A stretch of 64,000 nt of DNA from an uncultured Candidatus Saccharibacteria bacterium (GCA_964632215.1 CAZWBG010000001.1:559863-623862); one strand, 5' to 3'. Positions 1,545 through 54,532 are shown, counted from the first letter of the stretch. Made by a program: numbers and translations. The notes: generated from the letters alone by a model not told the origin.

Positions 1545-1619
1545 TGGTAGCGGGAGTAGGACTCGAACCTACGACCTCTTGGTTATGAGCCAAGCGAGCT
1601 GCCACTGCTCCATCCCGCG
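1545..1619 (-). tRNA. Initiator-type tRNA-fMet (anticodon CAT)
   Basis: The 75-nt cloverleaf CGCGGGA-UG-GAGC-AGUGGCA-GCUC-G-CUUGG-CUCAUAA-CCAAG-AGGUC-GUAGG-UUCGAGU-CCUAC-UCCCGCU-A-CCA folds by hand. It has a C1/U72 mismatch and is close to the E. coli tRNA-fMet as I recall it (CGCGGGG.GGAGCAG...CUCAUAAC...AGGUCG). Confidence 0.85.
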
Positions 1620-2266: not shown

Positions 2267-2342
2267 GGGGGTGTAGCTCAGTGGTTAGAGCAGTTGGCTC
2301 ATAACTAATTGGTCCCTGGTTCAAGTCCAGGCACCCCCACCA
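2267..2342 (+). tRNA. tRNA with CAT anticodon, elongator Met type (lysidine-modified tRNA-Ile2 not excluded)
   Basis: The 76-nt cloverleaf GGGGGTG-TA-GCTC-AGTGGTTA-GAGC-A-GTTGG-CTCATAA-CTAAT-TGGTC-CCTGG-TTCAAGT-CCAGG-CACCCCC-A-CCA has a fully paired acceptor stem. Confidence 0.85.
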
Positions 2343-6482: not shown

Positions 6483-7748
6483 ATGCACGTATATTTCTCT
6501 GGTGTTGGCGGTGTTGGTATTGGCCCCTTAGCCATGCTAGCACTCGACAGTGGCTATAATGTCAGCGGCTCAGATTTGCAGCAAAGCGAGATGGTCTCTT
6601 TCCTTCGAGATCGCGGAGCACGAGTGGTAATTGGTCAAGATGGCTCACAGATTGCCAATGAGCACATCGAAAAGCCGCTAGACTGGTTTGTCTACTCCTC
6701 AGCACTGCCAGAAGATCACCCTGAGCTCAAATTTGCACGCGAACATGGTATTAAAATAAGTAAACGAGCTGATTTTCTTAATCACCTTATAGATGAAAAG
6801 CAGCTGAGCCTGATAGCAGTAGCTGGAACACATGGCAAAACGACCACAACAGGTATGTTGGTATGGCTCTTTAAGCAGATGGGTATTCCAGTAAGCTACT
6901 CTATCGGTACCAGTGTTAATTTTGGACCACCAGCCCAATATCAAGCAGGTTCTGAGTATTTTGTGTATGAATGTGATGAGTTTGACCGTAATTTCTTAGA
7001 ATTTAAACCTTACCTGAGCCTCGTTACGTCACTAGACTATGACCACCCCGATACCTACCCAACCTCAGCCGACTATGACTACGCCTTTATAGATTTTCTC
7101 ACGCAGAGTAAGCGTAAAATTATGTGGCAAAATGATGCCGACCATCTGAATCTAAAAGATGAGCCAAGCCTTTCTATACTAAGTGAGAGTGACCCTGGAG
7201 TTAGTTTAGTGAAGCTACCCGGTACACATATGCGGCGTAATGGCTGGTTGGCCGCTCAAAGTTTGCACGAACTATTTGGGAACCAACCTATGGAAGACAT
7301 TCTGCGAGCCCTAGCACAGTTCCCAGGGACCAATCGTCGGTTTGAAAAACTCGGCCATAACCTCTATACCGACTACGCTCATCACCCTACCGAAATTGCT
7401 GCCACTATCCAGATGGCCAAAGAGTTGAACCAGAAAGTAGTAGTTGTTTATCAGCCACACCAGAATGTTCGACAACATGAACTCGCAAAAGAAGGTGGCT
7501 ACAAAGGTAGTCTTGAGGGTGTCGAGAAAGTCTATTGGTTGCCAACCTACTTAAGCCGTGAGGATTCAGCATTACCAGTTCTCACACCCAAAGAGCTCAT
7601 CACAACAGCCACTAACGGATCCGATATTGTCGAAGCAGGTATGAGTGAGCAGCTCTGGCAGGCAATTGAAGAACACCGCAAAAATGGTACTCTGGTGATC
7701 TGTATGTCAGCTGGTGATCTCGACCACTGGCTCCGCCAAATGCTGTAA
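6483..7748 (+). CDS. murC: UDP-N-acetylmuramate--L-alanine ligase (Mur ligase family)
   Basis: N-terminal Rossmann motif HVYFSGVGGVGIGPLAMLALDSGYNVSGSD and Mur ligase P-loop AVAGTHGKTTTTGML. I prefer the ATG at 6483 over the TTG at 6447. Confidence 0.75.
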   Translation: MHVYFSGVGGVGIGPLAMLALDSGYNVSGSDLQQSEMVSFLRDRGARVVIGQDGSQIANEHIEKPLDWFVYSSALPEDHPELKFAREHGIKISKRADFLNHLIDEKQLSLIAVAGTHGKTTTTGMLVWLFKQMGIPVSYSIGTSVNFGPPAQYQAGSEYFVYECDEFDRNFLEFKPYLSLVTSLDYDHPDTYPTSADYDYAFIDFLTQSKRKIMWQNDADHLNLKDEPSLSILSESDPGVSLVKLPGTHMRRNGWLAAQSLHELFGNQPMEDILRALAQFPGTNRRFEKLGHNLYTDYAHHPTEIAATIQMAKELNQKVVVVYQPHQNVRQHELAKEGGYKGSLEGVEKVYWLPTYLSREDSALPVLTPKELITTATNGSDIVEAGMSEQLWQAIEEHRKNGTLVICMSAGDLDHWLRQML

Positions 7749-8300: not shown

Positions 8301-8999
8301 TTACTTTAATTCCTTCATGATACCACAGAAGTTGGTGGGGATACCTTGGGCGGTGAACCGTTCTTCGTAGTGGGTTTTGACTTTGTAGTCCTCAGATAGT
8401 TCAGAGTCATGTAGATCAAAGGTGAGTTCATTAAATTGCCACTTTTCAGCTACAAACTGCTCTAGGCTCCACAAAAATAGTTCGCGGTTATCAGTTTTAA
8501 ATTGGAGTTTTCCGGTGGGCTCTAGAATTTTGCGATACTGTTGCAAAAACAGAGGATGAGTTAATCTCCGTCGAATACTTCGCTTTCGCATAAATGGGTC
8601 CGGGAATGTGAGCCAGATAGTCGCTACCGATTTTTTCCCGAAAACCTGCGTCAGCCCCGCCAAATGCATGCGCACAAAAGCAATATTAGTTACACCCTCC
8701 TCTAGGGCCTGCTTGGCACTGGTATATAAACGATCTGATTTAATATCTATCGCGATGAAATTGTACTGCGGATGCCGACGAGCAAGCTCTAGACTAAACT
8801 GGGCATTACCAGCCGCGATCTCAAGAACTAGAGGCTGCTCTTCTTGAAGGTACGAAGTGAGTTGTTGCTGAAGTGTTTTTGGATCATCATTTTGAGAGAA
8901 CGAGAAACAGTTTTGATAGCTATCAAAACTGGCAAACTTATACTTTTTACGCTTACGCGTAATAATAAGGTGCTCAAAAGGATCTTTTGCCAATTTCAT
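8301..8999 (-). CDS. trmB: tRNA (guanine-N7)-methyltransferase
   Basis: SAM motif LEIAAGNAQF plus the TrmB-typical WLTFPDPFMRKRSIRRRL and KTDNRELF. Confidence 0.85.
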   Translation of the reverse strand: MKLAKDPFEHLIITRKRKKYKFASFDSYQNCFSFSQNDDPKTLQQQLTSYLQEEQPLVLEIAAGNAQFSLELARRHPQYNFIAIDIKSDRLYTSAKQALEEGVTNIAFVRMHLAGLTQVFGKKSVATIWLTFPDPFMRKRSIRRRLTHPLFLQQYRKILEPTGKLQFKTDNRELFLWSLEQFVAEKWQFNELTFDLHDSELSEDYKVKTHYEERFTAQGIPTNFCGIMKELK

Positions 9000-9971: not shown

Positions 9972-10382
9972 CTAAAGTGAGGGTTGATCGCTCGGTACTA
10001 AATGAATATTCTGGTCACTTAAATCGCTTGGATCAAACTTATTGATGGCATCAAGAGCATTAATCTCTTTAGTCATAAATTCGATCTTCTGCTTCGTGGC
10101 AGGAGCATCTACGCGGGCGGTTGCATCACTTATGACAGCATCTTCAACTTTAAGATCTTGCTCACTCGCAGCATTACCTGGCCGAGCAATATCATATTTC
10201 CGATCAGTATCTTGCCAGTATACGTAGTAAGCTACGACCACAAGTATGCCAGCTACAAATATAAGCAAACACATAGAGGCAACGAAACTCAGTTTAATAT
10301 TTAACCGGTTGCGGAACACCACTTCTTTGGGTTTAGTTGATTCTAGAGCCTTAGGCTCATCATCAGTTGACTCTTTAGTCAT
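9972..10382 (-). CDS. Hypothetical membrane-anchored protein
   Basis: 136 aa with a single TM segment (CLLIFVAGILVVVAYYVYW). Its start abuts the stop of the upstream gene (10382/10383). Confidence 0.5.
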   Translation of the reverse strand: MTKESTDDEPKALESTKPKEVVFRNRLNIKLSFVASMCLLIFVAGILVVVAYYVYWQDTDRKYDIARPGNAASEQDLKVEDAVISDATARVDAPATKQKIEFMTKEINALDAINKFDPSDLSDQNIHLVPSDQPSL

Positions 10383-47671: not shown

Positions 47672-47733
47672 ACCTGCGTGCTCCTTGATTATCCTGATAC
47701 TATTTTATACTACCAAATCTTCTACACAACTCA

Positions 47734-47844
47734 ATCAGCAATCTATCTTTTAAGTTTGAGGTAGACCAACATCACCTCAAGGACTTAGTAGAACAGTTGG
47801 GGTTAGCCCGTAACTCCATACTCATCAGCCAACTTCAGGCGTAG
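47734..47844 (+). pseudogene. Start-less coding remnant, copy 1 (ISNLSFKFEVDQHHLKDLVEQLGLARNSILISQLQA*)
   Basis: The in-frame region is bounded upstream by TGA (47695) with no ATG, GTG or TTG. It is paralogous to 48534..48632, and the differences are concentrated at synonymous third codon positions. Confidence 0.45.
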
Positions 47845-47940
47845 TGACAGGACGAGACATTTTGTCATCAGGAATAGAGGTTTTCAGTCTCTGTTGATTA
47901 AATTCGAGGCTTGGCTCCCTCTGGTCGACACATTTCGTAA

Positions 47941-48180
47941 CTATTGGGTGGTAGATTTATGCCATTTGTCATCGTCGCCTTTTTCGTAGCCGCCTTTCTT
48001 AACTGCACTCCAAGCTACACGGTGAGCAGTCTCCTCTCTATCACTATCGCCACGGCGCTCTTCGGGTGTGTCGTACTGACCATAGGCACTATTGAAAGCC
48101 TCTCTGTAGATATGCTGGGCATGGTCGGGGAGCACGTTTCGTACATTCTCAGGTAGCTCGTTAATAGATTTGTATGACAT
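47941..48180 (-). CDS. chaB: ChaB-family protein
   Basis: MSYKSINELPENVRNVLPDHAQHIYREAFNSAY...ETAHRVAWSAVKK. The ATG at 48180 follows AAGGAGG. Confidence 0.75.
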   Translation of the reverse strand: MSYKSINELPENVRNVLPDHAQHIYREAFNSAYGQYDTPEERRGDSDREETAHRVAWSAVKKGGYEKGDDDKWHKSTTQ

Positions 48181-48251
48181 AGTCTGCCTCCTTTTCACTT
48201 AACGGTCTGTACTGTCTATTATAACTCGAGATGCAAGTATGCAACCTTGAA

Positions 48252-48461
48252 TTAAGATTTGTTGTTTAAATACTTACCAGCAACACTTAAAGCAAATGAA
48301 GGAAGTATAATAAAAACAGTTACAAATAAAAGTCTTATAAGTGCTTCACTAAGAGCAGAGTCTTGCTTGTCAGGACCCGAGGCTGTTAGAACGACTAAAA
48401 TCCCCAGGACACCAAAGGCAATTGACGCATAAGTAAATATTCTTGTAGCTATTTTTTGCAT
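48252..48461 (-). CDS. Small hypothetical membrane protein
   Basis: 69 aa with two TM segments. Confidence 0.45.
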   Translation of the reverse strand: MQKIATRIFTYASIAFGVLGILVVLTASGPDKQDSALSEALIRLLFVTVFIILPSFALSVAGKYLNNKS

Positions 48462-48533
48462 ACTTATATTATACCAAACAAAAACACTCTGCTTGCGTAA
48501 GGTGCATATACTTGGCTCCTCCCATACACCTCG

Positions 48534-48632
48534 ATCAGCAACTTAAGGTTTGAGCATGAAGTTGATCAGAGTTACCTCAAAGATTTAGTTAAAAGGCTAG
48601 GATTAAGGCGTTCGGCTCTAACTGTACAGTGA
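48534..48632 (+). pseudogene. Start-less coding remnant, copy 2 (ISNLRFEHEVDQSYLKDLVKRLGLRRSALTVQ*)
   Basis: The in-frame region is bounded upstream by TAA with no start codon. It is paralogous to 47734..47844 and begins exactly 800 bp from that copy. Its 3' end overlaps the end of the convergent DUF2000-like gene. Confidence 0.45.
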
Positions 48633-49046
48633 GAATTTTTTAGTCAACTCTCTTGAATCCTCTTTGTCCATGAAGAAGCATATACCGAAGTATTCTAGTT
48701 CTTCTTCGGGTGTCTCTTTGGTACGCTGATGTTGCTCAACATAAGTACCTTCGATCATTGTGTCTGTAAAGTCGGTAAACGGTATGCCTTTTTCACGCAA
48801 AGTATTTCTCAGTGTTCTAATTTGGTTACCATTTTTAGCTTTCAAAATGATAAAAGGATTGTCTGAGATACTTGGATGTTTTGTACCGTCCTTATCCGTG
48901 TAAGTTTGAAAGCGTAGCTCGTCGTAATTATCAAAAAGTGCGGTCAATCCCACAGACATATGCCCTATAGCATTAAGGGCACGTCCTGGCTCTACTTTTT
49001 TGTTAATGACACAGATAAATTGTTTGGTAGTTGGTTTGCTGCTCAT
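48618..49046 (-). CDS. DUF2000-family protein
   Basis: KQFICVINKKVEPGRALNAIGHMSVGL...YTDKDGTKHPSISDNPFIILKA...TDFTDTM matches the DUF2000 pattern as I recall it. The start is either M13 (49046) or 49082. Confidence 0.55.
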   Translation of the reverse strand: MSSKPTTKQFICVINKKVEPGRALNAIGHMSVGLTALFDNYDELRFQTYTDKDGTKHPSISDNPFIILKAKNGNQIRTLRNTLREKGIPFTDFTDTMIEGTYVEQHQRTKETPEEELEYFGICFFMDKEDSRELTKKFSLYS

Positions 49047-49269
49047 AAGATGATAATAACAGACATAAAACAATTCACCCAAATCGGGTTCGAATCGATT
49101 AATTGATTAGAGATTTTCCAGAAATAAAAAGAAGCCCAAAACAAGTTCACGCTACCTCTATAAATCGTTCAATTTGACTCCGCAGTAAGGTCTAGAACTT
49201 TACTAGGTATATTCAGGAAGTCGAAGCACGAACCTACTAGTATGTGATGTATCTCTTTTTTGAAACTGG

Positions 49270-52155
49270 CTAGTTCTTTACTATGATTTTTCTACGAATG
49301 ATTATAAGTGCCGAACCGCCACCGAAGAGTAAACCTGCTACCACTGCATGCAGAGACATAGACTGACCGGTATCAGCAAGATCCGTGGCGCCACCAGGTT
49401 GCACGGCCAATCCGCCAGACACCACGAGATTGTTAATAATCGCATTGGCGACCAGCGCGAAAGTTGAAAAGCTGCTTGTTTCGCAAGTAATGGTCTTGGC
49501 TGCTATATCAGTGGTACAGCTGTCCAGTTCGTTCCAATTGTTGGCATCATCGTAGTGGTAAATCATTAACGTTTCCGGGTCTATCCCCGTCAGATTAGTA
49601 CTAGGGTAATTGAATGTAATAGCAATGGGCTGCAAAAAATTATCAACAGTTGTCGAGGCGTCCGTAAGAGCTTCAATGTGATACATGTAGCCGCCAAGGA
49701 CTACCAGCGTGCCAGGCTTGCCAATAACTGCCCGCGCTTCACTGGCATCAATGCGCTTAATCTGGAACGTGGCATCGGTGGCTGCAAAACCGCTCGGAAT
49801 AGTTATCGTAATGTCGCCCAAACTCAACGAACCTCCGCTGGCAGTCGTAATAGCCTCTTCCATGTGAGCCATGACTGTTCCTGGACAACCATTTGTAGTA
49901 AAACCCCGGATTTCGCTAACAGCCTGCTGGCTGAATGCATCTTTAGAAAGTACCTGATAATAGTATCTTGTGCACATCTTCAGATTTGGTATCTGATAAG
50001 TATGGCTAGTGACCCGCGGGCCTGTGTTTTGTTCGGCATATATTCCATTAACCAACCCCGAAGTTAGACCGATTGCGATCTGGCTAGACGCTACTTCGTC
50101 GGTGGCCCAGGTAATTGTGGCTGATTCACCGTCGTCTGCCGACGTTGCCACAATGTTGCTAATTATTGGGACAGCAGTGTCGACAGCGTAGTTATTAGAA
50201 CTTGTGGTACCCGTACCGACGTTGCCGCTCAAATCAACCACACCAGTATTATCCAGTACAATGACATTAATTGAATTTGTTGCGCCGGTAGTTGGTGTCA
50301 GAGTCGCAGTCCAGGTTATACCACCGTCGGACGAACTGGGCGAGCTGAGACTGCCGTTTCCAACAACAAAATCAGAGACATCTAACCCTATCACCGCTTC
50401 GCTGAAAGTAATGGTAATAGTTGCGGTTTCACCCGTGACCAGGCTAGTGTCGCTCACTACAATACTTGCGGTGGGGCCTACGTTGTCAGCAGTAGCGACA
50501 GTCTCAATATTAAACGTATCGGTTACTGTCCCGCCGTTGCCGTCATCGGCGATCAGGTCGATTGAAATAGTGCCAACGTCGCCGCTAGCGGGAGTGCCGC
50601 TGAAAGTACGAGTGGCGGCATCGAAACTTAACCATGCTGGCAAAGCACTACCACCGGCAAGTTGCGCGGTATACGTGAGTGTATCGCCAACATCAATATC
50701 ATTAAAAGTATTGGCTGCAAACTGAAAGCTAAAGGCTACGTCTTCGGTGGCATTTTGATTGGGAATTGCGTTAGCAATAGTGGGGACGTCGTTAGTATTC
50801 GCGACAACAATATTGAACGTATCGGTTACCGTCCCGCCGTTGCCGTCATCAGCAATCACATCGATTGTCAGGGTGCCCACATCGCCGTTACTTGGCGTAC
50901 CGCTAAAAGTACGGGTTACTGGATCGAATGATAGCCACGTCGGAAGCGCACCCCCTCCTGCCCATTGGGCTGTGTAGGTAAGTGAATCTTCCAGGTCTGG
51001 ATCGTTAAATGTATTGGCTGCAAACTGGAAGTAGAATGCGGCGTCTTCTGTGCCATTTTGATTTGGGATAGGATTGGCAATAGTAGGTACGTCATTGGTG
51101 TTCGCGATAACAATATTAAATGTGTCAGTAACATCCCCGCCATTACCGTCGCTAGCAATAACATCAATCGATACCGTTCCAACATGTGCGTTCAGTGGCG
51201 TACCGCTAAATGTGCGAGTAGCAGCATCAAACTGTAACCACGCAGGTAGCATCCCACCTCCAGCGAGTTGCGCACTGTAAGTTAATGTTGTTCCGGCATC
51301 AACATCGTTAAAAGTATTGGCGGCAAACTGGAAATTAAATGTACTATCTTCGGTGGCATTTTGATTGGGAATTGCGTTGGCTATTGTAGGCGCGTCATTG
51401 ACATTGGCGATGATAATATCAAACGTATCCGTAGCAGTTCCGCCATTACCATCGTCAGCGATTAGGTCTACTGAAATTATACCAACATCACCATTAACGG
51501 GCGTGCCGCTGAAAGTACGAGTGGCGGCATCGAAGTTCAACCATACTGGTAAAGCACTACCACCAGATAGTTGTGCGAAGTATGTGAGTGTGCTTTCGGT
51601 ACTCTCAAACGTATTGGCTGCAAACTGAAAGCTAAAGGCTGCGTCTTCGGTGGCATTTTGATTTGGGATAGGATTGGCTACAATGGTAGTAAACGGAGCG
51701 CTGGCCTCATCGTACACAGTTATGTCGAAAAAGTCAGACACAGATAGGCCGCCATCGCTAGCTATTACTTCAACTGTAAAATTACCGACATCACCGTTAC
51801 TTGGAGTGCCGCTGAAAGTTCGTGTGGCAGAATCGAACGATAACCATCCCGGCAGAGGACTACCCCCTGATAGTTGAGCTGTGTATGTGATAGGAGCACC
51901 ATCTATATTTTGGAATGCGTTGACTCCAAACGAAAAATTAAAAGCTACGTTTTCGATTGCGCTTTGATCTGGAAGGGGGTTGACTATAACGGGCTGTGCG
52001 GCCCAGGCAGGTACGAAGTGCCCTAAAACAACCCCTGTCAGAATAATGAACACTGCGCTAAGCGATAAGAAAGTCTTAGCTTTTTTATTAAGCCAGAATG
52101 TCTTATTCTTCCATGATCGATTAGAAGTATGTGTAAAACTATTTTTCCAAAACAC
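49270..52155 (-). CDS. Cell-wall-anchored adhesin: five cadherin-like (dystroglycan-type/He_PIG) repeats, a Big-like domain, an FN3-like domain and an LAxTG sorting signal
   Basis: GTG start after GAGGAG, with a signal/TM segment. The repeat is PIPNQNATED.AF.FQFAANTF....TLTY.AQLAGG.ALPAWL.FDAATRTFSGTP.NGDVG...ID.IADDGNGG.VTDTFNI. The C-terminus is LADTG, a hydrophobic segment, then RRK. Confidence 0.85.
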   Translation of the reverse strand: MFWKNSFTHTSNRSWKNKTFWLNKKAKTFLSLSAVFIILTGVVLGHFVPAWAAQPVIVNPLPDQSAIENVAFNFSFGVNAFQNIDGAPITYTAQLSGGSPLPGWLSFDSATRTFSGTPSNGDVGNFTVEVIASDGGLSVSDFFDITVYDEASAPFTTIVANPIPNQNATEDAAFSFQFAANTFESTESTLTYFAQLSGGSALPVWLNFDAATRTFSGTPVNGDVGIISVDLIADDGNGGTATDTFDIIIANVNDAPTIANAIPNQNATEDSTFNFQFAANTFNDVDAGTTLTYSAQLAGGGMLPAWLQFDAATRTFSGTPLNAHVGTVSIDVIASDGNGGDVTDTFNIVIANTNDVPTIANPIPNQNGTEDAAFYFQFAANTFNDPDLEDSLTYTAQWAGGGALPTWLSFDPVTRTFSGTPSNGDVGTLTIDVIADDGNGGTVTDTFNIVVANTNDVPTIANAIPNQNATEDVAFSFQFAANTFNDIDVGDTLTYTAQLAGGSALPAWLSFDAATRTFSGTPASGDVGTISIDLIADDGNGGTVTDTFNIETVATADNVGPTASIVVSDTSLVTGETATITITFSEAVIGLDVSDFVVGNGSLSSPSSSDGGITWTATLTPTTGATNSINVIVLDNTGVVDLSGNVGTGTTSSNNYAVDTAVPIISNIVATSADDGESATITWATDEVASSQIAIGLTSGLVNGIYAEQNTGPRVTSHTYQIPNLKMCTRYYYQVLSKDAFSQQAVSEIRGFTTNGCPGTVMAHMEEAITTASGGSLSLGDITITIPSGFAATDATFQIKRIDASEARAVIGKPGTLVVLGGYMYHIEALTDASTTVDNFLQPIAITFNYPSTNLTGIDPETLMIYHYDDANNWNELDSCTTDIAAKTITCETSSFSTFALVANAIINNLVVSGGLAVQPGGATDLADTGQSMSLHAVVAGLLFGGGSALIIIRRKIIVKN
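50520..51993 (-). repeat. Five tandem ~300-nt repeats encoding the cadherin-like domains (divergent, not identical)
   Basis: Repeat units are readable in the translation. At the DNA level adjacent units align by eye at roughly three quarters identity (not computed). Confidence 0.8.
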
Positions 52156-52301
52156 TGGCTCTCCTCATAAGCTATTGTACTAAGTAAACTATTAATGAAG
52201 CTAAAGCACAACCATTTTAATAGTCGTGTACTATTATTTATTAATCCTAAGCACTTTATAAAGACTAGGATTCCGGTAGCGTAAATGTTTACTGGGTTTT
52301 A

Positions 52302-52330
52302 GTTCAACTACCTTGTCTTGGCTCCGATGG
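52302..52330 (-). repeat. Partial copy of the tRNA-Asn 3' end and downstream flank
   Basis: Minus strand CCATCGGAGCCAAGACAAGGTAGTTGAAC compared with the tRNA-Asn junction CTCCAGAGCCAAGCCAAGTTAGTTGAAG. Within GAGCCAAG.CAAG.TAGTTGAA, 22 of 24 positions are identical. Confidence 0.6.
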
Positions 52331-52464
52331 CTGAATAACTAAGGTACATCTTCGTCGCTTACTCGATGCGAGCATCTGCGTGAGCGCCTTGCTATCAAAC
52401 TGCGAGACCCACGAGCTTGCTTTGTAGTCTCTGGTCGCTGATTCAAATCAGGCGACGTGAGAAT

Positions 52465-52496
52465 AAAAAATAACCCACTGGTGTGAGTTATTTTTT
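52465..52496. terminator. Bidirectional intrinsic terminator
   Basis: AAAAAATAACCCAC-TGGT-GTGAGTTATTTTTT forms a 9-bp stem with one C/A mismatch, with A6 and T6 flanks. It lies just downstream of the CDS ending at 52544. Confidence 0.7.
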
Positions 52497-52543
52497 ATTG
52501 GCTCACAACAATAGAGCAAGTCATAACTGCGATTAAGCTGGAC

Positions 52544-53158
52544 TTAACTTGCAGTTAGTTTGTTGCCATCGACCATCGCACCCGCATAGCCTTCATCGAG
52601 GTAACTGAGAGCTACTTTTGAATCTAGGCAGTATACTATCATATTTTCTTTTTGAAATGTCTTATTCTCAGAATCATTCTGCATGAACAAATCGGGGGTG
52701 TAATCTAGCTTAGAGGCGAGGTCATCTTTAAAGTATTGAGCCGTCTTTTTGCCTAGGTTATGTGCATACTCCAATATTTCAGGCTGGGCTGCAATAATGA
52801 TGCCAGAACTGCCAAACACATCGGTAAGGTAACGCAAAAGCTTTAACGGTACTTTATCCAAGTCAAGACACTTTAAGTCTACGTACCACTCTACCTCAGG
52901 GAATTGAGCCACAATCTTTTCAATAAATCCTTCATTTATATCGTATACCTCATTAATCCTATCTCTGTCTAGGGGATGACAAAATTTAAAAGTCATTTCT
53001 GACGTTGCATATATGTCAATTTCAATTTTTGTGAAACCCGCTCGTACATAGTAGCTAACCTGTTCAAGTGGTTCAGCTACGTCAACTGGTGAGTTACCTC
53101 TATGGACTACAATATTAGTAATGCTCATAAAAACAATTATCTCATACAATGGTTTCAA
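52544..53158 (-). CDS. GDPD-like phosphodiesterase-fold protein (weak assignment)
   Basis: NIVVHRGNSP...AGFTKIEIDIY...FKFCHPLD loosely resembles the glycerophosphodiester phosphodiesterase motif HRG...E.D....HD. The start is either TTG at 53158 or ATG at 53128. Confidence 0.4.
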   Translation of the reverse strand: MKPLYEIIVFMSITNIVVHRGNSPVDVAEPLEQVSYYVRAGFTKIEIDIYATSEMTFKFCHPLDRDRINEVYDINEGFIEKIVAQFPEVEWYVDLKCLDLDKVPLKLLRYLTDVFGSSGIIIAAQPEILEYAHNLGKKTAQYFKDDLASKLDYTPDLFMQNDSENKTFQKENMIVYCLDSKVALSYLDEGYAGAMVDGNKLTAS

Positions 53159-53175
53159 TTCTACTCAGGGTACAT

Positions 53176-53232
53176 AAAAAGTCAGAACCGATAGTTCAGT
53201 TCTGACTTCATCTGTTCTGGCTTGGCTCACCA
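53176..53232 (-). repeat. Copy of the tRNA-Asn 3' end plus its terminator hairpin
   Basis: Minus strand GTGAGCCAAGCCAGAACAGATGAAGTCAGAAC-TGAACTATCG-GTTCTGACTTTTT compared with the tRNA-Asn tail CAGAGCCAAGCCAAGTTAGTTGAAGTCAGAAC-CGTTAATTCA-GTTCTGACTTTTT. The identical blocks are GAGCCAAGCCA, TGAAGTCAGAAC and GTTCTGACTTTTT. Confidence 0.8.
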
Positions 53233-53316
53233 CGATAGAGGAAGTTATAATCGTAATAAAAACGGACCTTGCTTGCTAATTTGCTTATTTTGGCTTCATG
53301 TAATATATTAAGTTAC

Positions 53317-53946
53317 ATGAAAAAGAATACACCCAGCGTGCCTGTAAGCAATCAAGCAAGCGACTCGCATAATATTTTCGATAATCCCGAGCTGTTTATA
53401 GAAAAGTTTGATGGAACCGAACGAGATGACTGGCAAAAACCGAATGAAGTAATCAAAACTTTCAGCATATCGTCCGATGCGGTAGTTGTCGAGATCGGTG
53501 CTGGTACTGGTTACTTCGCTGTTCGTCTGGCCAAGCACGTAAAATATGGGCACATTTTCGCTTACGAGCAAGCCCCTAAAATGGCAGATTATCTTAGAGA
53601 CCGTGTTAATAAACTTGGGCTTAACAATGTTGATGTTCGCATGACTGAGCCAGACGGTAGCCTGGTACTAGAAAAACCAGCTGATCTCATCTTCTCAGTT
53701 GATGTCTATCACCACATCCATGATCGTGTATCATACTTCGCTAAAGTTCTACAGAACCTTAAATCTAAAGGTATGCTCGTAGTGATCGACCGTACTGAAG
53801 AAAAGGTAGAGGGGCAGCCCATGGGACATAGAGTGCCCACAGCAACAGTAAAGAAAGAAATGCAAGAAGCTGGGTTTGAGTTGATTGAGGAATTAAGTAT
53901 GTTGCTACCTGTCCAATACTATCTAGCATTTAAGCGTGCAGAATAA
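53317..53946 (+). CDS. Class I SAM-dependent methyltransferase
   Basis: Motif I VVEIGAGTGYFAVRLA, with DLIFSVDVYHHI downstream. I prefer the ATG at 53317 over the TTG at 53269. Confidence 0.75.
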   Translation: MKKNTPSVPVSNQASDSHNIFDNPELFIEKFDGTERDDWQKPNEVIKTFSISSDAVVVEIGAGTGYFAVRLAKHVKYGHIFAYEQAPKMADYLRDRVNKLGLNNVDVRMTEPDGSLVLEKPADLIFSVDVYHHIHDRVSYFAKVLQNLKSKGMLVVIDRTEEKVEGQPMGHRVPTATVKKEMQEAGFELIEELSMLLPVQYYLAFKRAE

Positions 53947-53952
53947 TCGTCT

Positions 53953-54387
53953 ATGAAAAAAAGTACTAAATTTTCGGATGTATTACATATCCTCCTCCAT
54001 ATGGCAGAATCTAAAGATCCGATCACATCGGATAATTTAGCTAAGGCAATGCAGACTAATCCTGTTGTTGTTCGTAGAACAATGGCTGGGCTGCGGGAGC
54101 AAAGATTTGTTATTTCCCAAAAAGGGCACGGCGGTGGCTGGCAACTTACATGCAATTTAGAAACCGTCACACTGCACGATGTGTATGTAGCAATTGGCTC
54201 TCCGACCATGGTTGCACTAGGAAACCGAACAGATTCATCGAAGTGTCTCGTCGAAAAAACCGTCAACATAGCGACCAATGATGCCTTCATTGATGCGGAA
54301 AAAGCTTTGGTTACTAGCTTTCGTAATACCACGCTAGCAGATCTGAATAAAATTACTTATAAGCATCCCCGCAGAGAACACCCCTAG
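53953..54387 (+). CDS. Rrf2-family transcriptional regulator
   Basis: FSDVLHILLHMAESKDPITSDNLAKAMQTNPVVVRRTMAGLREQRFVISQKGHGGGWQL is a typical Rrf2 wHTH sequence. Confidence 0.8.
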   Translation: MKKSTKFSDVLHILLHMAESKDPITSDNLAKAMQTNPVVVRRTMAGLREQRFVISQKGHGGGWQLTCNLETVTLHDVYVAIGSPTMVALGNRTDSSKCLVEKTVNIATNDAFIDAEKALVTSFRNTTLADLNKITYKHPRREHP

Positions 54388-54410
54388 TTTCATTTCTATT
54401 ATGCGTATAC

Positions 54411-54441
54411 AAAAAGTCAGAACTGAATTAACGGTTCTGAC
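54411..54441 (-). terminator. Intrinsic terminator of tRNA-Asn
   Basis: On the minus strand, GTCAGAAC-CGTTAATTCA-GTTCTGAC is followed by TTTTT. Confidence 0.7.
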
Positions 54442-54457
54442 TTCAACTAACTTGGCT

Positions 54458-54532
54458 TGGCTCTGGAGGCCGGGCTCGAACCGGCAACCCTCTGATTAAC
54501 AGTCAGATGCTCTACCATTGAGCTACTCCAGA
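54458..54532 (-). tRNA. tRNA-Asn (anticodon GTT)
   Basis: The 75-nt cloverleaf TCTGGAG-TA-GCTC-AATGGTA-GAGC-A-TCTGA-CTGTTAA-TCAGA-GGGTT-GCCGG-TTCGAGC-CCGGC-CTCCAGA-G-CCA folds by hand. Confidence 0.9.

Follow-up and report, generated by a model that had tools for sequence, protein, structure and literature searches.

We analysed a 64,000-nt stretch of DNA from an uncultured Candidatus Saccharibacteria bacterium (the window; G+C 45%), with attention to the region next to its tRNA-Asn(GTT) gene on the minus strand (54458-54532). We propose, with a probability of about 0.6, that the region from 52.3 to 54.5 kb is a tandem array of two small units that entered at the 3' end of tRNA-Asn by serial site-specific insertion. 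Behind this array, the sequence is best explained as the former tRNA flank followed by an older pseudo-3' end. The two units are set apart by a conserved junction that is centred on a copy of the last six tRNA bases. The same junction lies between unrelated genes beside tRNA-Asn in other Saccharibacteria and would mark a recurrent point of gene insertion. An initial annotation of the window had described a decayed tandem array of integrations at this gene. The repeats, which probably are recombination scars at the tRNA-Asn 3' end and bound accessory units, agree with that description. The random decay does not; what we found instead are discrete cassettes with a composite junction.

Repeated junctions downstream of tRNA-Asn

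The tRNA-Asn gene encodes its own CCA end (ARAGORN; Rfam tRNA, 73.2 bits), has a conserved promoter-like element, TTGACT-17-TATAAT, at 54582-54554, and would anchor the array in the role of attB. The repeated core is GAGCCA, the last six nucleotides of the gene (54458-54463), made up of the final two acceptor-stem nucleotides, the discriminator G and CCA. Six copies of this hexamer, against 0.52 expected, are present in the intergenic minus strand from 41.0 to 55.1 kb, which totals 3,220 nt (p ~2e-5). Elsewhere in the window, GAGCCAA always falls within a coding sequence (CDS) or a tRNA-Met anticodon arm. The 10-mer GAGCCAAGCC occurs exactly at 54454-54463, 53219-53228 and 47908-47917 on the minus strand, as the initial annotation had reported, and its chance expectation is indeed below one: four copies were counted against 0.15 expected, the additional one being at 7161-7170 (+), inside a Mur-ligase CDS. 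Two tRNA-Met(CAT) genes were also located, on opposite strands and 650 nt apart, at 1545-1619 (-) and 2267-2342 (+); their anticodon arms are two of the GAGCCAA matches.

Junction A (54387-54463, minus strand) consists of the core GAGCCA and the sequence that follows it, the X-arm (AGCC..GTTGAAG, a hairpin at 54414-54443, a T-run and ..GAAATGAAAC), as identified by an X-arm profile (E 1e-19) and a ViennaRNA fold. It is the terminator of tRNA-Asn and abuts the stop codon of a convergent Rrf2 gene. Junction B (53152-53269, minus strand) has in addition a P-arm at 53229-53269 (profile E 3e-11), followed by the core at 53223-53228 and an X-arm at 53152-53228 (profile E 4e-21). The alignment of A (54387-54463) with B (53152-53228) is the strongest repeat, with 75% identity over 77 nt (blastn E 7e-8 to 6e-10); it begins exactly at GAGCCA, spans the terminator hairpin and ends 24 nt past it. 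The hairpins of B (53179-53208) and A (54414-54443) have the same stems, as had been noted before. The loop of B, previously described as different, is the reverse complement of that of A, and the two hairpins are complementary at 28 of 30 positions overall. The sequences thus appear to differ by a small inversion of the hairpin loop between otherwise direct repeats. Since the loop is flipped between identical stems, A and B are more alike than the 75% indicates.

Junction C (52462-52546, minus strand) has a P-arm at 52505-52546 (profile E 5e-12), the core at 52499-52504 and a distinct terminator hairpin at 52462-52499, recognised as an inverted repeat. Its P-arm begins at the TAA stop codon of a gene for a GDPD-fold protein. 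As the initial annotation stated, B and C are about 73% identical (53222-53276 against 52498-52552, 55 nt), and common to both is a 48-nt P-arm ending in GAGCCA (52499-52546 in C). The copy at B had been taken for the remnant of a paralogous gene end. A GCAAG upstream of it does hint at a GDPD-type origin, but it is not merely such a remnant, as the P-arm is a conserved 48-nt intergenic element that other genomes have after unrelated genes. Homology to two related loci, L108 and L104, ends at the core of junction C. We take C to be the distal junction, attR-like, where the array meets the native tRNA flank. Hairpins with T-runs at gene 3' ends are thus present at the X-arms of A and B, and at C; a simple terminator scan overlooked all three hairpins because their loops exceed 8 nt. 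On the antisense strand of the core and P-arm of B, a promoter-like TTGGCT-18-TATAAT lies at 53222-53251 (+), 66 nt before the start of a methyltransferase gene, and its -35 element is complementary to the tRNA-end core.

Two fainter traces follow in a single 388-nt spacer. Directly after terminator C is an inverted fragment of a tRNA-Asn T-arm of another allele type (GGTCGCTGATTCAAATCAGGCGA; 52433-52455, plus strand; nhmmer alternative-allele profile, E 0.56 window-wide). Junction D (52272-52336, minus strand; nhmmer E 0.19) is separated by about 120 nt from the adhesin start, on the upstream side. It consists of a decayed 3' end of tRNA-Asn, of the other allele (ATTCAGCCATCGGAGCCA), followed by AGACAAGGTAGTTGAA and then by an L104-like flank. 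When the whole window was ranked with the alternative-allele profile, D came fourth and the inverted fragment fifth, behind three true tRNAs. AGACAAGGTAGTTGAA at D matches the flank of A at 14 of 16 positions. The similarity of D to the tRNA-Asn end and flank was confirmed, at 20 of 22 positions (52303-52324) rather than the 22 of 24 claimed earlier. The D flank is also 85% identical over 27 nt to L104:8277-8303, a segment that itself follows a GAGCCAA.

Could the recurrence of such a short motif be due to chance alone? Chance copies do arise, as the exact 10-mer within the CDS at 7161 demonstrates, and two further copies speak in the same direction. One is the exact GAGCCAAGCC after the ChaB gene (47908-47917, minus strand). 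The other, GAGCCAAGTA within the Shine-Dalgarno-like GGGAGGAGCCAAGTATATG before a 12-codon open reading frame (ORF), lies on the minus strand at 48509-48518, 2 nt from where the initial annotation had placed it. Both stand in purine-rich, Shine-Dalgarno-like GGAG contexts. Their flanks have no similarity, neither junction profile matches either of them even at E 100-200, and the sole other signal, at 48509-48518, is similarity over 13 nt to the L087 tRNA end and flank (E 0.32). Their membership in the array is therefore unsupported, and chance is the best reading of these two sites. For junctions A to D, the E-values (A/B ~1e-9, P-arm 1e-11) and the matches across genomes exclude it, and as an account of the array we give chance next to no weight. 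The repeats had been said to delimit small units over 6.5 kb. This is demonstrable for the proximal 2.2 kb, with two units and older scars, and unsupported for the adhesin, DUF2000, or the small membrane protein and ChaB genes.

A separate 64-nt direct repeat with 70% identity was noticed on the minus strand at 47726-47789 and 48526-48589, upstream of the YdeI-like and small membrane-protein genes. It contains a small hairpin (TTGAGGT..ACCTCAA) and is marginal (E 0.77), with no Rfam family and no counterpart in relatives.

Core-to-core units and a conserved junction module

Both units follow one order: an X-arm with its terminator hairpin, then the cargo, then a P-arm and GAGCCA. The cargo of unit 1 (53317-54387) is a class I S-adenosylmethionine methyltransferase (53317-53946) and an Rrf2 regulator (53953-54387), assigned by Pfam and Logan gene calls and encoded on the plus strand, opposite to the array. 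Unit 2 carries a single gene (52544-53128, minus strand) for a 194-aa protein, of a rare family with 30 homologues. This protein has no sequence match in Pfam or PDB. Its AlphaFold2 (AF2) model (pLDDT 91) is predicted to have a GDPD-type TIM-barrel fold, with 1v8e as the best Foldseek match (E 1.9e-7, TM 0.67), which bears out its earlier label as GDPD-like. A weak TnsA-like match (E 0.12) had made a nuclease or recombinase a candidate, and this was rejected in view of the predicted fold.

For comparison, loci were gathered via the LexA-like protein encoded upstream of tRNA-Asn (5,372 homologues) and via a conserved 42-mer of the tRNA; about 20 of the loci contain tRNA-Asn. We aligned the window with L108 over a segment that extends beyond core B on the left and beyond core C on the right by 120 nt each. 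Identity was 25/60 at 61-120 nt and 22/60 at 1-60 nt left of core B. It was 65/83 in the X-arm, 454/593 in the leader and gene, and 37/54 in the P-arm and core C. To the right of core C it was 22/42 at 1-60 nt and 24/60 at 61-120 nt. Because identity drops outside both cores, the GDPD-fold block shared with L108 runs from core to core, bounded by the two copies of GAGCCA, and this is the most direct evidence for exchange at the cores. With L104, the right boundary also lies at the core (44/54, then 16/60). The genes between the repeats differ among relatives.

The P-arm was first recognised from the genomic contexts of the rare 194-aa protein. It has the consensus form TAA(A/G)TCC..TTATTACGGTTATAACTTCCTCTATCGTTGTGAGCCA. 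A 48-nt profile built from seven training copies was searched in the window and in 108 loci (1.63 Mb), and it found nine distinct sites in four genomes: B and C of the window, two in L104, four in L108 and one in L085. Matches outside the training set were the L085 site (E 6e-12) and one L108 site (E 1e-8). Every site is downstream of a tRNA-Asn and on the strand of the tRNA (window, L085, L104-107, L108). The genes before the P-arms are unrelated, encoding APH, DUF1697, 90-, 96- and 138-aa ORFs and the GDPD-fold protein, and in half of the cases the arm's initial TAA also serves as the stop codon of the gene before it. The similarity is also independent of cargo. The P-arm of window C is closest to the L085 arm after DUF1697 (88%), as compared with 79% and 69% for the arms behind orthologous GDPD-fold genes.

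The X-arm, which follows the core at A and B, has the form AGCC..AGATGAAGTCAGAAC, a loop, GTTCTGACTTTTT and then ..TAGAATTGAAAC. In the same 1.63 Mb, its profile matched A, B, the tRNA flank and two junctions of L108, and one junction of L104 that was new (E 1e-7); all are in tRNA-Asn arrays. Other right arms are of a Z type (L085, L093, L104) or of a 'native' type, made of a terminator and an inverted T-arm fragment. The distal flank of A (..ATAGAAATGAAAC) was considered as the 5' end of a gutted GDPD cassette. This was rejected, as the segment is present in every X-arm, including those before other genes. Conserved hairpin formation by pairing of P-arm with X-arm was likewise rejected, as the pairing partners differ among instances.

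We also searched for the module in other collections. It was not found in IMG/VR, where five matches were 18-mer chance matches without an extended P-arm and a 25-mer gave 0 matches, nor in INPHARED phages or PLSDB plasmids. A metagenome search with the exact 43-nt 3' part of the tRNA gave 0 matches. Two independent SRA assemblies in Logan, L001 and L002, contain identical window proteins in the same local layout, and the P-arm and X-arm profiles recovered the order A-B-C in both.

The initial annotation had raised the alternative that GAGCCA plus hairpin modules act as transcript-processing punctuation, that is, as terminators or processing signals selected after each gene and unrelated to DNA mobility. 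The terminator-like hairpins with T-runs in the X-arm and at junction C fit this idea, junction A must terminate the tRNA transcript, and the modules stand at gene 3' ends. The P-arm, however, has no conserved RNA structure (RNAalifold consensus energy ~0, no covarying pairs), and the X-arm stems are conserved in sequence rather than covarying. Junction B is part of a divergent promoter region and has no upstream gene in its own orientation. By the profiles, moreover, no other gene end of the window carries the module, nor does anything outside the tRNA-Asn arrays in 1.6 Mb including related loci. Together with the GAGCCAA survey, this indicates that the motif is not a genome-wide terminator context. 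We therefore regard punctuation of transcripts as very improbable. Conservation in sequence without an RNA fold would fit a protein-binding DNA site. A partial dyad around the core (CTTCCTCTAT, 19 nt, then ACAGATGAAG; 10-nt arms) is present at X- and Z-type junctions only. It would fit the site of a dimeric recombinase; not being universal, it is merely a lead.

A different explanation dispenses with a dedicated recombinase. An ancestral unit would have been duplicated in tandem, and the ~125-nt junctions would serve as portable homology for cassette swaps by homologous recombination or gene conversion after natural transformation, being kept for their terminator and promoter elements. One tandem duplication of [core-X-GDPD-P] with replacement of the first gene could yield A, B and C, and the GCAAG before the P-arm of B is placed as at the GDPD gene end. 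The right arms resemble the tRNA flank of their own genome (X-type in the window and L108, Z-type in L085), as gene conversion would give. The breakpoint between the L104 and L106 strains lies in another intergenic repeat and not at a core, and natural competence is reported for Saccharibacteria in PMC10633639. On the other hand, between-genome homology blocks stop on either side no more than a few bases from the 6-nt core, which is the signature of site-specific exchange as opposed to homologous exchange. The array is tied to tRNA-Asn despite a differing neighbourhood (L108 has no LexA-like gene upstream of the tRNA), and P-arm similarity crosses genomes regardless of cargo. Homologous exchange of this kind appears to us rather unlikely.

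The tRNA-Asn site in relatives and proposed serial insertion

Upstream of tRNA-Asn is a conserved block encoding Wzy, a GalU-like protein, GtrA and a protein with a LexA DNA-binding domain, whose synteny is seen in many relatives. The downstream side, at lower coordinates, holds accessory-type genes, and its gene content differs among L085, L087, L091, L092, L094, L098, L103, L104 and L108; a common gene order without presence/absence variation next to tRNA-Asn is thus not what the relatives have. Five of the 11 LexA-anchored contigs end inside tRNA-Asn or at most 35 nt past it. The site in relatives is plainly unstable. Relatives found through the GalU-like neighbour protein (at most 67% identity) had no tRNA-Asn nearby and were uninformative.

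Pseudo-3' ends of tRNA-Asn recur at these loci. L085 has, 4.9 kb downstream, a 96-nt copy (88.5% identity, E 1e-30) of a tRNA-Asn T-arm with acceptor end, flank and terminator, and another 2.2 kb on there is a third junction; these bound two islands without an integrase. In L096, L098/L102 and L104, pseudo-3' ends occur in tandem, two or three of them over a few hundred bases. In L099, L103 and L102, an inverted pseudo-copy of the 3' part of the tRNA comes directly after the terminator, the layout seen at window C.

In L091 and L092, large serine recombinases of 562 and 599 aa are encoded on the reverse strand abutting tRNA-Asn, with island-type genes beyond. They are 62% identical to each other and have the domains Resolvase, Recombinase and Zn_ribbon, with no Recombinase match in L092. 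Both ORFs (L091:11183-12871 and L092:10824-12623, minus strand) cross the tRNA terminator into the 3' end of tRNA-Asn, and both proteins terminate in WLRRLDSNQRP, encoded antisense to that end. The recombinase at this tRNA in relatives is therefore a large serine recombinase and not the tyrosine recombinase that the initial annotation suggested searching for, and it would be the obvious candidate enzyme for the array. The window has no homologue of these proteins, and they have no close relative in IMG/VR.

We suggest the following course for serial insertion at tRNA-Asn. A recombinase encoded outside the window would join the P-GAGCCA-X site of a circular unit to the GAGCCA that ends tRNA-Asn. 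Exchange at or past the last six tRNA bases would keep the tRNA intact. Since the core is formed by exactly these bases, each insertion would leave the tRNA whole and swap its terminator, the new one coming from the incoming X-arm. Older units would be shifted distally, and repetition would yield A (tRNA, core, X), B (P, core, X) and C (P, core, native flank). This pattern is the one expected from serial integration whether the units were inserted separately or one was duplicated. Junction D and the inverted T-arm fragment would remain from earlier events in which a 3' end of tRNA-Asn, of the other allele, was displaced. The unit next to the tRNA may then be the younger one, and the units may still be mobile.

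Several observations weigh against serial insertion. In the comparison with L104, the GDPD cassette has its left boundary within the hairpin and not at the core. The left half-site of the tRNA has no similarity to the P-arm, the dyad around the core is confined to X- and Z-type right arms, and the cargo of unit 1 is inverted. As the initial annotation had already said of integrases, no recombinase or transposase Pfam domain was found in the 60 window ORFs of at least 100 aa. The P-arm arrays of L085, L104 and L108 have no adjacent recombinase, L108 having only an insertion sequence (IS) transposase. For the serine-recombinase islands of L091 and L092, followed short of their distal ends, a link to P-arm junctions is putative. 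No excised circle or empty site was observed. The sequences compared are all metagenome contigs, none of them closer than ~80% protein identity.

Free-standing GIY-YIG nucleases offer another possible origin for such scars. They would cut the tRNA-Asn gene, and sloppy repair would duplicate tRNA ends and capture foreign DNA. GIY-YIG ORFs do adjoin tRNA-Asn fragments in L092, L096, L098 and L104/L105, the ORF of L096 being flanked by 25-nt repeats, and a group I intron is present in the tRNA-Asn of L091. The window, however, has no GIY-YIG gene, and neither the conserved 48-nt P-arm nor the cassette blocks with both boundaries common across genomes would be explained. We consider this origin improbable.

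The homing-type elements of the relatives were recorded in their own right. The L091 intron (L091:10889-11181) matches Rfam RF00028 (55.1 bits, E 1.7e-11) and splits the tRNA-Asn anticodon loop; the exons join to a normal tRNA-Asn. The small GIY-YIG ORFs are at L092:10555-10800, in L096 (reverse complement 313-575), at L098:~560-650 and at L105:8627-9052. That of L096 lies between 25-nt direct repeats of the tRNA 3' end, and those of L092 and L098 between a duplicated 5' piece of the tRNA and the intact gene. A presence/absence polymorphism of the GIY-YIG gene between L104 and L105 was rejected, as the two are collinear at 99.5% and differ in gene calling only. In a pseudo-tRNA-Asn of L098 (~1090-1200), the 16-nt palindrome tccgccNNNNggcgga occupies each of the D-, anticodon- and T-loop positions; it also interrupts 5' tRNA fragments upstream of the real gene at L098:~637-652 and L092:10516-10531.

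Related systems and neighbouring features

The nearest published parallel is the ssrA islands of Dehalococcoides (McMurdie et al. 2011, PMC3146451). There, tandem islands downstream of a single-copy tRNA-like RNA gene likewise have as their boundaries that gene or a short, directly repeated copy of its 3' end. Just upstream of the repeat is a conserved 15-bp motif that does not align with ssrA, in a position comparable to the 48-nt P-arm. A 540-aa serine recombinase is encoded on the reverse strand next to attL, which matches the position of the L091 and L092 enzymes (562 and 599 aa). Many units in both cases lack an integration module; in Dehalococcoides, 15 such islands were interpreted as cis-mobilizable elements. 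The two systems differ in that the target is tRNA-Asn here and tmRNA there, and exchange is apparently at the last 6 nt here and in the T-loop there. The repeat here reaches ~70 nt beyond the gene and includes the terminator. Our units are single-gene and 0.7-1.2 kb in size, whereas those of Dehalococcoides are multi-kb islands, and no integration module was seen in any P-arm array.

Accretion of integrative and conjugative or mobilizable elements (ICEs, IMEs) and of cis-mobilizable elements (CIMEs) in Streptococcus, a subject reviewed in PMC5704250, also involves integrase-less, att-flanked units that stand in tandem at a single attB. Serial integration is their presumed origin, and they are presumed to be mobilizable in trans or in cis. 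Those are decayed ICEs and IMEs of several kb with tyrosine integrases, unlike the single-gene cassettes with a composite junction described here. The modules bounded by dif sites in Acinetobacter (e.g., PMC6449649) are likewise reported as small accessory-gene modules with short recombination sites and a recombinase encoded elsewhere. They have 28-bp XerC/XerD sites in alternating orientation on plasmids, as opposed to ~125-nt direct repeats on the chromosome beside a tRNA.

Integron cassettes are comparable in being mostly single-gene units, with a conserved site-like element from at or near the stop codon, short-core boundaries and a fixed insertion end. In contrast to integrons, our arrays have no IntI: no Phage_integrase-type domain was found in window ORFs of at least 100 aa, and none was called in the L085, L104 and L108 arrays. 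The attC cores RYYYAAC/GTTRRRY were not seen in the junctions by inspection, no dedicated attC model having been run. The boundaries lie at GAGCCA, the P-arm lacks a conserved hairpin, a tRNA 3' end forms the anchor, and the cassettes seem to carry their own promoters. The array thus resembles an integron or a set of dif modules in outline, apparently without the defining features of either. Tentatively, Saccharibacteria might have an integron-like platform for gene capture, although we think it doubtful at present. The tRNA-Asn 3' end would act as attI, the ~125-bp junction as attC, and a recombinase in trans would insert, excise and shuffle single-gene cassettes between genomes. Candidate enzymes would be the large serine recombinase of relatives or a housekeeping enzyme. 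If such a platform exists, these epibionts with tiny genomes would have a dedicated route for accessory genes; if the units are fixed scars, this is just another tRNA-linked island array.

Genomes of Saccharibacteria and other bacteria belonging to the candidate phyla radiation (CPR) measure less than 1 Mb, and their acquisition of accessory genes is little understood. Our results indicate that the tRNA-Asn 3' end is a defined hot spot that is reused across the lineage and hosts serine-recombinase islands, integrase-less units, GIY-YIG genes and a group I intron. Literature searches returned no such arrays for Saccharibacteria or Patescibacteria. The conserved junction provides a searchable signature for mobile cargo in CPR metagenomes and a concrete pair of att sites for tests of CPR recombinases, possibly also a tool for site-specific integration in newly tractable organisms. 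It would further exemplify recombinase-less modules of single-gene size that belong neither to integrons nor to dif modules.

The proteins neighbouring the array have their nearest relatives in metagenome-assembled genomes of Saccharimonadales. Downstream of tRNA-Asn, the methyltransferase and Rrf2 genes (plus strand) and the gene for the 194-aa protein are followed by one for a 961-aa He_PIG adhesin. DUF2000, small membrane-protein, ChaB, YdeI-like, glyoxalase and other genes lie farther on. A search of 47.4-54.7 kb with Rfam at permissive thresholds gave no further tRNA-like or other RNA family. Within the adhesin gene, five tandem 303-nt repeats (50505-51890; 62-80% identical) encode He_PIG immunoglobulin-like domains, and same-strain Logan contigs break within them.

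Two further features were noted in L104. An intergenic repeat (..cactcgaacacgatgtcatcccgcc..) at L104:~10340-10378, L104:~8800-8870 and L106:~1430-1468 marks the position from which the gene content of two strains differs, although their GDPD-fold proteins are identical. A reverse transcriptase gene (RVT_1; L104:5671-6988, minus strand) and an adjacent helix-turn-helix gene lie inside the tRNA-Asn-linked array, and the locus looks like a retron or an Abi-type defence locus.

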